A DNA stretch of 64,000 nt from Bdellovibrionales bacterium (GTDB taxonomy: Bacteria; Bdellovibrionota; Bdellovibrionia; Bdellovibrionales; JAUICD01), in NCBI GenBank assembly GCA_965203275.1, contig OZ241865.1, positions 992,001 to 1,056,000 of the forward strand, read 5' to 3'. The notes beneath the pieces were generated by a model. That model was not told where the DNA came from, searched no databases, and was given only the letters and a program-made list of their open reading frames with translations. Position 1 is the first letter of the stretch; each line of letters starts with the position of its first letter. A program made the position numbers and the translations under genes. Positions 4,329 to 60,209 of the stretch are shown here, one piece after another.

Positions 4329-4870
4329 TTCACTCAAAATGAGCCACACCTCTGGTGTGTTTTTGGGCATTGCTCTGACAGCTATCGCTGTCTAAAAAGA
4401 GCAATGCCGCAAAAAACTGCTCATTTTGAGTAGGGAGGATCTCCTCGTCTCTTAACCACATGTTAAGGAAACAGAGTTTCATTTGTAAACCCGCTTGCTC
4501 CTGAGATAATAAAAGAAATTTTCCCTAACATGGCGTAAAGGAATAAAAGGATCCTTCTCTACTCAAAATGAACAAGCTTTTGAGGATAATAAAAGAAATT
4601 TTCCCTAACATGGCGTAAAGGAATAAAAGGATCCTTCTCTACTCAAAATGAACAAGCTTTTGAGGTAGCCAGCTTTTTACGACGGCGTGAGCCGTCGGGC
4701 TGGCTACCCAAAAGTGGCCAGAGGCCAGTTCATTTTGAGTGAAATGTTAAGGAAACAGAGTTTTATTCGCAAACTGCTTGCTCCTGAGGTAATAAAAGAA
4801 ATTTTCCTTAACATGGTGTAAAAGAATAAAAGGATCCTCTCTACTCAAAATGCATAGATTTTTGAGGCTA
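4329..4870. repeat. cluster of structured ~145-nt repeats (family A), both orientations
   Basis: Full copies at ~4329-4472 and ~4601-4743 (opposite orientations), partial copies, and an ~80-bp direct duplication. Confidence 0.85.
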
Positions 4871-4964
4871 AAAACCTACTTTCATAAAAATCCTTTACTT
4901 TTAATTCAAAAGGTTTATAATAATACTAAAGGAATATTTACAATAATATGAAAGGTAGGTTAAA

Positions 4965-5264
4965 ATGTTTAAGGATGTGAAGGATACAGCTATATTTATA
5001 ATTGGTATTTTTAGTGTTGTAGCAAGCTTATTTTTTATAGGTGATATGTTGAATGACCCTATCCAAATACAAATAAATCATATTGAAGAAAAGATTGACA
5101 CACTTGAAGAAAAGATTGATACAAAGGTAGGCGGACTTGAAGAAAAGATTGATACAAAGGTAGGCGGACTTGAAGAAAAGATTGATAATATGGCTGAACA
5201 AAACAAAATTATAATACAAGCATTAAAGATTAAAGGCATTCATATTACTAAAGCCGGTCAATAA
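4965..5264 (+). CDS. small TM plus coiled-coil protein with 11-aa (33-bp) repeats
   Basis: N-terminal TM segment; LEEKIDTKVGG repeated. Confidence 0.7.
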   Translation: MFKDVKDTAIFIIGIFSVVASLFFIGDMLNDPIQIQINHIEEKIDTLEEKIDTKVGGLEEKIDTKVGGLEEKIDNMAEQNKIIIQALKIKGIHITKAGQ

Positions 5265-5404
5265 CAATTAATTTTATAAGCACATCTTATAAGCAAAAGC
5301 CTCCAAACTGGCCAGAGCATATCCAAAATCTACTATTTTAATAATATTTGCTTCTATTTAAAATCCCACAACCTCCAAGCCAGTATATAATTAATAACTT
5401 CTGT

Positions 5405-6050
5405 TGTTTCACTAAATTCACTAAAAGTGGTCTTTTTCACTAAAAGTGGTCTGACCTCTGTCTCACTAAAAGTAAACCAACCTCTGGTTGCTTTTGGACA
5501 TTGCTCTGACAGCTCACGCTGTCTAAAAAGAGCAATGTCTCAAAAGTCCGTTTACTTTTAGTAGGGAAGGATCTCCTCGTTTTTTAACAACATGTTAAGG
5601 GTTTGTTTCACTCAAAATGCATCATGCCTCTGTTTCCCTAAAATTGAACTAGCCTCTGGCTACTTTTGGGCAGTTAGCCCGACGACTGTCGTCGTCGATC
5701 AAAGGCTAACTCCCTCAAAAGCTTGTTCAATTTTAGGAAGAAGGATCTCCTCGTCTCTTGACCACATGTTAAGGAAAATATCCTTTTAATACCAGTTAGC
5801 CCAACGGCTTATCGCCGTTGATCAAAGGCTAACTGCCTAGAAAATCCATTTATTTTGAGTAGGGAGGATCCTTTTTTTTTCTTAATACCATGTTAAGGAA
5901 AAAGTTCTTTTTAAACCCGCCAAGGGCTCAGGAGGAAATTTTTTAGATGCAAAAATTCATTACGATTAATCTTCTAGAACCTGACTGCCGGGTTGCCGGT
6001 TGCCGGATCCCGGATCCCAGATCCCGGATAAACACAATGTTAAGGAAAAA
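5405..6050. repeat. family A copies, stacked truncated ends and a GGATCCG-type heptamer repeat (family B)
   Basis: Copies at ~5463-5600, ~5634-5778 and a partial at 5793-5900; heptamer tract ~5981-6030. Confidence 0.85.
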
Positions 6051-6234
6051 GAGTTTTGATTCTATCATATTTAATGCCACCTCCACTGAATTTTTGGCCG
6101 CCGTGCCAGCTTGTTGTGATTTTTTGAGCAGAAATATATATTTCTTTTTTTAGAAAATAAGGTTTAAGGATCTGATTTACAAAAGCCTCTTCTGTTTTTC
6201 CTTCAACAATAAATTTGAGTCTTAAAGGATTCAT
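6040..6234 (-). pseudogene. DUF4276-like (TOPRIM-like) ATPase partner, truncated at a repeat
   Basis: MNPLRLKFIVEGKTEEAFVNQILKPYF; ATGA overlap with the ATPase stop; its own stop comes from the repeat leader CCTTAA. Confidence 0.7.
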
Positions 6235-7447
6235 GAGGAAGGTCCTGTGCTGTAAGGTTTTCCACCAATAACATTCTTTTCCCAAAGCTCCACAAGTGTG
6301 TAGTCTTCAAGCCAATTTTTAAGATCTTCTTCTTTGAACTTTGAAAATACAGATTGACCATCTTTTCTATCTACCACAATAAGATTATCAACTTTAAATT
6401 GATCTACAAGAATATCAGATTGAGTAGATATAATCACTTGAGTATTGGTAGATACACTCTCTAGCATGCTAGCAAGCAAGCTTAAAGCATCAGGATGTAA
6501 CCCTAATTCTGGTTCATCAATAATAATAGTAGAAGGTAGATCAGGTTGCATGAAAAAACAGACTAATAGAGTGGTCAAGCAAATAAAGCGAAGGGTCCCA
6601 TCAGAAATTTGCCCAGGGATAAAAGTTTGATCCACGCCTTCACTTTGCCATCTTAACTGCATAGAGTCTTGATTTTCTGGAGTTTTTTCAAGCACAAAGT
6701 CTTTAAAAAAGGAGCAACTCTTTGAATAGTTTTAACAATCATTTTATAATGAGAATTATTAGCTTGTTGAAACTTATAAAGCATAGCCGTTAAATTCCCT
6801 CCATCACTATGGAAAGATATATTATCTCCTACAAGACATGTTTGCTTTACTCTCGCTACTGGACTTGTATCATGGAAATGATACACTTTTAGATTGTTAA
6901 ATGTGGATTTAATTTGCGGGCTAAAAAAATCTGCAATGTTTTTTTTGCTTTCTTGATTGGTATTTTCTGATACTTCAATATTTTTTTGACTATTGTTCTT
7001 CAATATTTTGATGATGTCTTCTTTTTTAAAAACTTCACTTTTTGACATCCAAGGAGTTTCTTGATTTTCTGATGAGGAAAGATCAATAGTTAATTCCTTA
7101 GAATTGCTTTTTTGTTTTCGCATCTTTAAATCAAAAACATCAGGATCGCAACGATTCAATTGAAAAGCATAACCGTAAGAGCTATGATCAAAGTAAATAC
7201 TAGAAGCAATTTGTTCAGTTACCTTTGACCCATTATGTAGAATTCGATTTGCTCCACCAAGTTTTTTAGTACTACCTTCTAAACTTTCATTAACAATATC
7301 ATTAAGAAATTTAAAAAAGCTTAAAAAATTACTTTTCCCTGAACCATTCGCTCCTATGAGAACATTAAGCCCTGGTGATAACTCTAAATTGTTGAGGTTT
7401 TTGATAGATTTGAATCCCTCAATAGATATTGATTGTATTTTGGGCAT
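6231..7447 (-). pseudogene. AAA_21/ABC-type ATPase split by a 1-nt frameshift near 6705-6710
   Basis: Walker A GANGSGKS in 6653-7447; ISDGTLRF, IIIDEPELGLHP and ISTQS in 6231-6695. Confidence 0.85.
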
Positions 7448-58410: not shown

Positions 58411-58441
58411 TGATTAAAATTTTATTGTCATTCAAGCCTTA

Positions 58442-58517
58442 TGGTGCACCGGGGAGGACTTGAACCCCCAACCCTCAGATCCGAAGTCTGATGCTCTATC
58501 CATTGAGCTACCGGTGC
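58442..58517 (-). tRNA. tRNA-Arg(TCG)
   Basis: TCAGA-CTTCGGA-TCTGA anticodon arm, CCA end. Confidence 0.92.
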
Positions 58518-58531
58518 TTTTGTATTTTTTA

Positions 58532-58978
58532 TTATATTTTGTTTTTTAACTGATCAAAAATATTATCTTGTAATTGCATCATTTCTTTTTCTTCTTTACC
58601 ACCCGCTTCATGTTCGTATCCTAAAAGATGTAAAATACCATGTAAAATCAAATATCCTACCTCACTTAAAAAACTATGTCTATTTTTGATAGCTTGTGAT
58701 CGAATTATTTGTATGGCAAGAATAATTTCTCCCAAAGAAGTAGACTCTATCGGTTGAAAACTCAATACATCTGTAGGTTTATCTTTAATCCGGAATTTCT
58801 TATTGAGCTTTTGAACTTCCTTAGTCTCTTGAAAAACAATAGTTAATTGATTGACCGATGGAGGTAGTTGTACTTGATTTTCTGCTAAATAATAAAAGAT
58901 TTTATTGACTGTAAGTACAATTTGCTCTTCTTTAATAGGCAGAGGTGAAGATGAATGATTCAAAATATATACTTTCAT
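58532..58978 (-). CDS. ybeY: rRNA maturation endoribonuclease YbeY
   Basis: DKPTDVLSF and HGILHLLGYEH motifs. Confidence 0.93.
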   Translation of the reverse strand: MKVYILNHSSSPLPIKEEQIVLTVNKIFYYLAENQVQLPPSVNQLTIVFQETKEVQKLNKKFRIKDKPTDVLSFQPIESTSLGEIILAIQIIRSQAIKNRHSFLSEVGYLILHGILHLLGYEHEAGGKEEKEMMQLQDNIFDQLKNKI

Positions 58979-59204
58979 ATTGTGTTCTCTTTTTTGATTT
59001 CTCTTAGCTTTTTCTTTCACTATATTAAGCTTTTGTAAAGTATCCTCTGCTGATCATTTTGTCTATAAATGCTCGATTGCCTTCGCCTTTGTCATAACAC
59101 CTCCTTCGTTTTTAAAATACATGCCCCATCTGACTCCTTAACAGCAATTCTTTTTTATGTCAAGTTATTCTCTTTAATTTTGATTTGTTTTTTTCATATA
59201 ATTT

Positions 59205-60209
59205 TATCCGGAATCTGGGATCCGGGATCCGGGAACTGGGATCCGGGATCCGGCAGTCAGGCATCAGAAATAACTTTTTTTCCCTAACATGTAGTTAAGA
59301 GACAAAAGGATTATCCCTAACCCCACCCTCCGCCCTTCGATTCTGCTTTTCCATTTTGTTTTTATTTGAGGATAGGGCAGTGTGAGCCTTCCGAAGTCCT
59401 CAATTGAGCTTGCTTTTAAAGAGCAAGCTCAATTTGCGGAAGATCTTCAGTCTCCCACTGCCCCATCCTCTCCCTTAATTACTTTTTGTTTGAGAATTAC
59501 GCAGAATCTAAGAAAAATAAAAAAACAAAAAAAGAAATTTTTCCTTAACATGGAGTAAAAAAACGAAGATATTCTCTCTACTCAAAATGCATAGATTTTT
59601 GAGGCAATGACCATTTTGCCAATGGCGTAAAAAGTGAAATAAATAGCTTGTTTCCTTAACATCGTGTTAGTGTTAATCTCGGGATCTGGCATCCGGGATC
59701 CGGCAAGCCGGCATCAGGTTCTAGAATTGAACTTTTTCCTTAACATGGTGTTAAGAGGCAGGGGGATCCTCCTCTACTCAAAATGAGCGGATTTTTTAGA
59801 TGTTGCCTATTTTGTCAAAGGCGAAAGCCTTTGCAGGCAACATCAAAAAACACACCAGAGGTGTGGCTCATTTTGAGTGAAACAACTAACTTCCTACTAA
59901 AAGTGGTCAGGCTTTCTAGGCAATGACCATTTTGCCAATGGCGTAAAAAGTGAAATAAATAGCTTGTTTCCTTAACATCGTGTTAGTGTTAATCTCGGGA
60001 TCTGGCATCTGGGATCCGGAATCCGGGATCCGGCAAGCCGGCATCAGGTTCTAGAATTGAACTTTTTCCTTAACATGGTGTCAAAAAATGAGGAGATCCT
60101 CCCTACTAAAAGTAAACGGACTTTTGAGGTAGCCAGCCTTTGATCGACGACGACAGTCGTCGGGCTGGCTACCCAAAAGTAGCCAGAGGCTAGACCACTT
60201 TTAGTGAAA
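59205..60209. repeat. ~1-kb mosaic of families A, B and C with an internal ~150-bp duplication
   Basis: Family C at ~59315-59509; family A at ~59735-59883 and ~60065-60209; 59603-59750 is repeated at 59919-60080. Confidence 0.9.

Follow-up and report, generated by a model that had tools for sequence, protein, structure and literature searches.

A three-armed, probably selfish repeat found in one genus makes up 6% of a Bdellovibrionales genome

A 64,000-nt window of DNA from a Bdellovibrionales bacterium (positions 992,001 to 1,056,000 of a one-contig 2.57-Mb genome, here called G000) carries many copies of a 146-nt noncoding unit that folds into three arms around a three-way junction. We conclude that the repeat is real, is confined to one genus, and is unusually elaborate for a selfish repeat. 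With moderate confidence, we propose that it moves as a non-autonomous element: the minus strand is probably freed as folded single-stranded DNA (ssDNA) by a structure-specific nuclease, possibly one that has been lost, and is likely rejoined via short matches. Strand signs and the stem names S1 to S4 follow the orientation of an initial annotation of the window.

The unit runs from LE through stem S1, the S2 hairpin with its TCT loop, a long arm, a 3-nt linker, and the returning strand S1′ to a 40-nt tail that holds a weak hairpin. S1 has 13 bp including the foot. The long arm starts with two helices, of 6 bp and 11 bp, separated by one bulged base, and continues with a bulge of 5 to 6 nt, an S4 of 6 to 7 bp, and a 4-nt loop. 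In the reference full copy (4327..4471, plus strand), whose sequence, fold, and parse were determined, LE occupies 4327-4334, S1 4335-4344/4419-4428, S2 4345-4350/4354-4359 around the TCT loop, stem T 4360-4365/4410-4415, S3 4366-4376/4398-4408 with a 1-nt bulge at 4409, and S4 4377-4382/4387-4392 with its loop at 4383-4386; a 5-nt bulge (4393-4397), the linker (4416-4418), and the tail (4429-4471) complete the unit. Fold z-scores of three window copies range from −8.7 to −12.9 on both strands. All five S1 stems that the initial annotation had placed in the window are present, with complements 82 to 87 nt downstream (4335/4419, 5468/5550, 5640/5725, 47118/47205, and 53415/53500, the last having been given as 53414, one base off), as are its S2, S3, and S4 alleles and its GNNA loops. 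Features that the initial annotation missed are the continuation of S3 by 6 bp beyond a single bulge, the linker of 3 nt at the junction, the tail of 40 nt, loops that read GGTA or have 5 nt, and the genome-wide copy number. Tails vary more than the rest, with 421 distinct sequences among 650, yet some of their letters are invariant. The GTAG-like word that follows S1′ varies as well: its last position is G in 426 tails and A in 224, and its second is T in 568 and G in 82. The two ends of the unit share a weak T-rich resemblance. Some variants carry extra hairpins in the S2 loop, in the S4 loop, or before S1′ (L013:4603-4792, L014:5308-5469, and L019:371-528).

Pairing in the stems is maintained across very different sequences. 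An unfitted parse of 670 of the 690 full copies gave 25,174 Watson-Crick pairs out of 26,119 (96%), and among allele pairs present in at least 8 copies, complementarity is perfect for 9/10 in S1, 7/7 in S2, 9/19 in S3, and 8/9 in S4. When 75 distinct copies from G000, a second genome (G001), and three contigs of a third (G004) were aligned with fitting to the model, 96.4% of cells paired, versus 80.4% after shuffling; both sides changed in 33 of 46 pairs, versus 8 to 14 with slid partners; and the covariation score was 0.475, versus 0.183 for shuffled and 0.056 to 0.066 for slid alignments. Separately from this model-fitted alignment, paired arms share more information than neighboring arms do: S1′ is predicted by S1, 75 nt away, at 0.88 and by the adjacent S3′ at 0.61. 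Since S1′ follows the distant S1 across the 38 S1×S3 combinations seen, out of 126 possible, shared descent alone would not give this pattern. The copies have a mosaic makeup, entire inner arms having been exchanged with pairing kept, and the ten outer-stem alleles serve as tags. These comparisons, made against shuffled and slid partners, bear out the claim of the initial annotation that structure is kept while sequence varies.

A profile built on 426 genome copies was used to list repeat pieces in the window. The window holds 33 non-redundant pieces (3,790 bp), 19 of which span the whole model, including one head-to-head fusion and one copy without S2. Genome-wide, there are 1,353 non-redundant pieces, 741 of them full. 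The family is thus larger than it appeared to the initial annotation, which had noted more than 20 full or partial intergenic copies in the window. Together they account for 155,465 bp, or 6.05% of the genome, and group into 425 clusters, with 108 tail-tail neighbor pairs as well as tandem arrays. A structural descriptor matched 610 times in G000 and not at all in 1 Mb of locally shuffled DNA. Only 4 full copies lie inside frames of ≥200 aa, all in one frame built of the repeat itself; insertions break genes, including Rpn genes, which they split. No replichore bias is seen in full copies (360 of 741 leading), but the genes of this genome are flat too (671 of 1,294); the GC skew of G000 is weak and erratic, which, with the lack of gene-strand bias, suggests heavy rearrangement. 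Across G000 the repeat has no preferred orientation relative to neighboring genes, and opposite orientations occur inside single clusters. Repeats are enriched upstream of pilin-like genes (19 of 33). In the public sequencing run X3, summed contig depth, which is not copy number, reached ∼8,000 to 10,800 on copies versus 46 to 56 on unique genes; this pileup of contigs on copies indicates that the repeat exists outside this one assembly as well.

The two ends differ in how they join other DNA. The LE end lies 0 to 8 nt outside the outer stem, and the tail end carries a long, variable flank. Among 1,156 LE ends, 496 (43%) are joined to another copy and 660 to other DNA. The joints within copies fall in the S2 loop (223), the opposite-strand tail hairpin (95), a preceding tail (65), or other inner positions (113), and those in the TCT loop represent 41 combinations of outer and inner type. 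The flank before LE loosely follows T-Y-T-G-T (T64/Y82/T76/G56/T84% in 419 unique flanks), and the tail is followed by a semiconserved linker of 10 to 20 nt and often by further shared DNA. Flanks shared by distant copies have a median length of 52 nt on the tail side versus 30 nt on the LE side; when 144 copies were compared for one-sided sharing, 77 shared the tail side only and 32 the LE side only. The outer S1 arms of nested copies match in 36 of 97 cases, versus 12.8 after shuffling (99.9th percentile, 23), which indicates that many nested copies arose by genuine insertion into a single older copy, ∼10 to 20 nt being lost. Candidate paralogous empty sites were found at 26 of 471 clusters; about six filled/empty pairs are independent and readable, and these have short matches at the joints together with deletions of 8 to 33 nt or, in one case, an 11-nt duplication. 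A fixed target duplication is absent, with ≥7 nt shared in 42 of 685 copies versus 31.6 after shuffling, and no contig bridging an empty site was found among the joints listed from public sequencing runs.

Several such joints lie in the window. On the minus strand, a tail-side fragment (4520..4585, model positions 82-146) sits within an 80-nt tandem duplication, followed by a full copy whose LE is joined to another copy's opposite-strand tail hairpin (4600..4745) and by another tail-side fragment (4803..4875). On the plus strand, the last of a stack of LE-side fragments (5405..5460) ends at its S2 loop, where a full copy is joined (5460..5603); an LE-S1-S2 fragment that likewise ends at the S2 loop (5605..5632) leads into a full nested copy (5632..5777), and beyond a 15-nt linker the 3′ part of another copy resumes (5793..5901, model positions 40-146). 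The head-to-head fusion, two LE halves joined through S3/S4, lies at 15878..15998 and has no strand; it is followed by a full minus-strand copy (16009..16154) and by a head-to-tail array of five full plus-strand copies with a period of 145 to 147 nt (18822..19553). Then come an LE-side fragment (25685..25716, plus) and two full minus-strand copies (25868..26010 and 26242..26387, the second also folded). A second structured module, a variable hairpin in a fixed frame, occupies ∼26015-26240 and is found in L011 and L012 too; its hairpin pieces fill the 50- to 65-nt spacers between the tail-to-tail copies compared. A mosaic cluster upstream of an Rpn-family gene (46368..47345, minus) contains full copies at 46706-46850 and 47074-47222 and several fragments, with a tail fragment at 48593..48633 (minus). 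The remaining pieces are a full copy, also folded (53407..53552, plus), the copy without an S2 hairpin (53771..53907, plus), and a mosaic cluster (59279..60210, minus) in which three fragments accompany full copies at 59735-59883 and 60065-60210.

Copies of the repeat turned up in a single genus. We surveyed 150 genomes of the order with a covariance model, scoring 21 candidates per genome, and found matches in three: G000, G001, and G004. All 14 matches in G004, of which 1.60 Mb was examined, are on contigs C1, C4, and C11. C11 carries a second S10 ribosomal-protein operon, two of whose proteins, which we take to be L2 and S3, are 86% and 89% identical, respectively, to those of G000 and 68% and 75% identical to G004's own copy on C14. 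To judge from these sequence identities, C1, C4, and C11 are likely contaminants from a relative of G000; with the G004 copies on contaminant contigs, the family is found in one genus only. Other duplicated genes on these contigs, which include L011-L013, L122, L127, and L128, are likewise far closer to G000 than to G004's own copies. Among metagenome contigs there was one pattern match, judged to be chance, and viral contigs, phages, and plasmids gave none. A GTDB pattern scan yielded at least 74 loci; among the matches listed, 25 came from one multi-hit record and 49 others had no model match. Runs labeled sponge metagenome, from one study, carry the window's genes at ∼95% identity.

Which strand folds can be judged from wobble pairs and loops. 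Among distinct single-mismatch stem alleles, with the S3 edge pair left out, G·T occurs on the minus strand in 53 and on the plus strand in 23 (p = 8e-4); for those present in ≥3 copies, the counts are 18 and 4. The four-base loops of G000 read GNNA on the minus strand in 598 of 610 cases, 224 being GNYA and 374 GNRA. On the basis of the wobble bias and the GNNA loops, the folded strand is likely the minus strand; the G·T excess could arise from selection on the minus fold or from damage to a single-stranded minus strand, both of which point the same way. A DNA mini-hairpin of the form C-GNNA-G is stable and nuclease resistant, and its RNA form is much weaker (PMC13037366). The GNYA loops, their match to this mini-hairpin, and the 96% Watson-Crick stems favor DNA over RNA, and we consider a DNA intermediate the more likely.

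Mobility, one of the two options raised by the initial annotation, is supported by the 741 full copies, by nesting, and by filled and empty sites; the other, a structured-RNA gene, is not supported as the main explanation. In the mechanism we propose, the minus strand, whose fold is conserved, would form a three-armed structure that begins 5′ with the tail and finishes 3′ with LE. A nicking enzyme acting in trans, perhaps RAYT-like, would cut at loosely fixed distances outside the fold, so that neighboring sequence moves with the unit, in larger amounts at the tail than at LE. The short LE overhang may then pair with a T-rich target, mostly the S2 loop of an older copy, as the junction pattern suggests, and the tail side would be resolved at a second patchy match, so that up to ∼35 nt are lost or a few are duplicated. 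Recombination between copies would swap whole inner arms while the outer arms stay paired, consistent with the mosaics, and local amplification would generate tandem arrays. A bolder version, which we hold only tentatively, is that the unit has no transposase belonging to a known class. Instead, a single strand folded into three arms and resistant to nucleases would be recognized by a host replication or repair protein, home by microhomology into its own loop, carry neighboring DNA, and exchange whole arms.

Several observations weigh against an excised minus-strand ssDNA. Weighted by copy, wobble counts are symmetric (307 versus 291); in 159 copies the S3 edge pair is a plus-strand G·T, and only once this pair is dropped does the bias appear; and the weak tail helix, too, shows plus-strand wobbles. 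In the sister-genome set (38 parsed loops from G001 loci and one multi-hit GTDB record), 30 loops are GNRA and many are closed by T-A, which suits RNA as well. Outer arms do not match in 61 of the 97 nested cases, and several empty alleles look like LE and could be scars left by deletion instead of targets, leaving the direction of change uncertain. No suitable enzyme came to light either: the HUH, RAYT, or reverse transcriptase (RT) gene predicted to be flanked by the motif was not found in G000, which scored 90% complete. Y1/HUH (PF01797) matches were absent from G000 by profile and motif scan, the single Y1 match in G001 is an IS200 TnpA with no repeat copy in its 3.4-kb locus, and the 96 open reading frames (ORFs) of G000 that lie between two copies included none that was recognized as a repeat-flanked coding element.

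Other enzyme classes were considered as well. G000 has no match to RT, IS110, or PDDEXK_3; Y2 (PF04986) matched none of five genomes and none of 14 controls either. The only GIY-YIG match lies in a 650-aa frame common to all five family genomes, the TnpB-domain match is a 1,325-aa Cas12-sized protein, and the DUF559 match has no copy nearby. G000 has two tyrosine recombinases; the short one (L002:1417-1980), 187 aa with the catalytic domain only, is kept in 32 of 41 relatives and so is not specific. A link to Xer, in which the tail would equal the host dif arm, was not supported: the sole dif-like site, judged by the dif consensus, is far from the inferred terminus, and across 41 genomes the pattern is no commoner than controls. 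Finally, reading by eye, as opposed to a library scan, the 288 soluble G000 proteins with no match in G004's own contigs or in the examined part of G003 (0.62 Mb, overlaps included, of 1.6 Mb) yielded no candidate.

Among the alternatives, the chief rival, possible although we consider it rather improbable, is that the minus strand is transcribed and copied back by an RT acting in trans, in the target-primed manner of short interspersed nuclear elements: the 3′ end of the RNA, at LE, would be primed by the target, and the 5′ end with its upstream flank would be joined by patchy homology. This route predicts the same asymmetry of ends and accords with the purine-rich, largely GNRA minus-strand loops (374 of 610 in G000, 30 of 38 in the sister-genome set), and the three RT matches of G001 include one from a group II intron and one from a retron. 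However, G000, the genome with the most copies, has no RT and no remnant of the G001 RT proteins; the 224 GNYA loops and the few G·U pairs retained are a poor fit to RNA; and promoter and terminator signals in the one 700-nt cluster scanned were not above chance. The group II RT loci are without a copy, and the retron locus has one, ∼440 nt away. In that retron (L348:1282-3054), an effector domain is fused to the RT in one 590-aa frame, with matches to NDT and type II-A RT. Joining of ssDNA by the host alone, similar to SPDIR (short-patch double illegitimate recombination), is an unlikely source. SPDIR in Acinetobacter baylyi joins ssDNA at two imperfect microhomologies, is favored without RecJ, and rises ∼30-fold in a recJ exoX mutant; it is also rare and sequence-general and does not multiply a single structured unit until it fills 6% of a genome (10.1101/2024.07.02.601687). 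The short matches at both joints and the failure to find a transposase for the unit agree with this route, as does the finding that G000 and G001 have just a 340-aa DHH protein, none RecJ-sized. DHH proteins of G000, G001, G003, and G004 are all 331 to 348 aa, while G002 has both sizes, and a RecJ-sized protein is missing in 11 of 31 genomes (G000, G001, and nine others), including G003 and G004, whose examined own DNA shows no copies; its absence may be permissive for the repeat but is not specific. Host-only joining is further opposed by the presence of exonuclease VII, by the lack of replichore bias in a genome whose gene-strand bias is flat too, by opposite orientations within clusters, and by invariant letters outside the stems, which suggest a specific binding protein.

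A dedicated partner among the Rpn (PD-(D/E)XK) nucleases or the four-helix-bundle genes is very unlikely, despite proximity in G000 (for Rpn the strongest of the enzyme leads), where a copy lies ≤300 nt from 51 of 54 Rpn-family ORFs and from 11 of 11 four-helix-bundle ORFs; in G001, 7 of 8 four-helix loci have a copy within 1.5 kb. Copies are found at just 2 of 10 Rpn loci in G001 and 0 of 10 in G003, which has 16 Rpn matches, and because copies split Rpn genes, we regard these genes as targets. The four-helix-bundle lead fails once the contamination of G004 is removed: this genome has 19 matches and no copy at 8 of 8 loci, and the gene is found in 58 of the 150 order genomes. Strong covariation and the enrichment upstream of pilin-like genes would suit a functional structured RNA or cis-element that the host keeps in many copies, a highly improbable reading given the nested, truncated, and fused copies, the gene-breaking insertions, the lack of a preferred orientation, and the confinement to one genus. 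The least probable reading, a classical miniature inverted-repeat transposable element of a resident DDE insertion sequence (IS), is largely refuted by comparisons of duplications and ends: IS256 and a second IS, presumably IS1634-like, are present, and the two repeat ends have a weak T-rich likeness, but there is no fixed target duplication, and the ends of IS256 (7 copies) and of the second IS (2 copies) are unrelated to the repeat.

A mobile ssDNA reading invites comparison with IS200/IS605 elements, which recognize single-strand hairpins, make no target duplication, and have a T-rich target before one end, all likenesses to the repeat; their ends are precise, and they insert on the lagging-strand template. 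In contrast, the repeat has loose ends, targets that lose or gain bases, no visible replichore bias in a genome whose genes are flat too, and no fixed target tetranucleotide. IS200/IS605 ends and their non-autonomous derivatives served as the comparison system (PMC6006769). The initial annotation did not recognize the repeat as a known family, and this stands for Rfam, which at the gathering score returned only 4 tRNAs in the window, and for the literature, where a search mostly outside subscription papers and excluding supplements gave no description of it. The behavior of the repeat, however, is that of REP/BIME/bcr1-type repeats. REP, BIME, and REPIN-RAYT systems likewise place palindromic units by the hundreds between genes, arranged as head-head, tail-tail, or tandem mosaics, with a bulged single-strand fold, variable linkers, and tandem amplification (PMC3333891, PMC3733652, and PMC8266576). 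RAYT cleaves on either side of REP, loosely at CT, and has been proposed to build mosaics and tandem arrays (PMC3333891), and CGTC repeats, too, lack a dedicated transposase (PMC3733652); the latter paper does not mention Bdellovibrio. Unlike these 20- to 40-nt hairpins, the repeat is 146 nt long with a three-way junction, has no fixed GTAG tag and no RAYT gene, shows far more stem covariation, and has a recurrent insertion point in its own loop. By analogy, it appears to work like REP/BIME, but size, tag, and RAYT gene exclude it from membership. It also resembles bcr1 of the Bacillus cereus group, which is ∼150 nt, lineage restricted, and mobile, with a branched fold and compensatory changes; bcr1 has 5-bp direct repeats and is transcribed, whereas the repeat makes no fixed duplication (bcr1 as reviewed in PMC3184786).

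Other features of the window deserve mention. Rpn/YhgA-like nuclease genes, represented at 47298-48491, number ∼54 ORFs genome-wide, many split by the repeat, and are expanded in G001 and G003 too. Four-helix-bundle genes (TIGR02436/PF05635) occur at ∼5902-6030, 19560-19630, 23380-23435, and 25820-25865 and in L090-L113 and L133-L156; they have 6- to 8-nt tandem repeats of their own, are multicopy in several genomes, often lie just before tRNA genes, and appear to form a mobile module of their own. Three large paralogous ORFs in tandem (8083-15797) have long near-identical stretches, the first without a Pfam match, and a 740-aa protein of repeated helix-turn-helix-like units is encoded at 19638-21860. 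The IS256 transposase gene lies at 36650-37885; of its 7 full genomic copies, at least 2 are apparently inside repeat copies, to judge from the flanks.

This repeat bears on how transposase-less palindromic repeats such as CGTC REPs, bcr1, and similar families spread. It is unusually rich material: because it has 741 full copies, ten S1 alleles that serve as tags, an insertion point used again and again, flanks that moved with the copies, and empty sites at paralogous positions, predictions about strand, ends, and junctions become directly testable. It also shows that strong covariation is no sure sign of a functional RNA in a bacterial genome and that a repeat of this kind may take up 6% of a small genome and disrupt genes.

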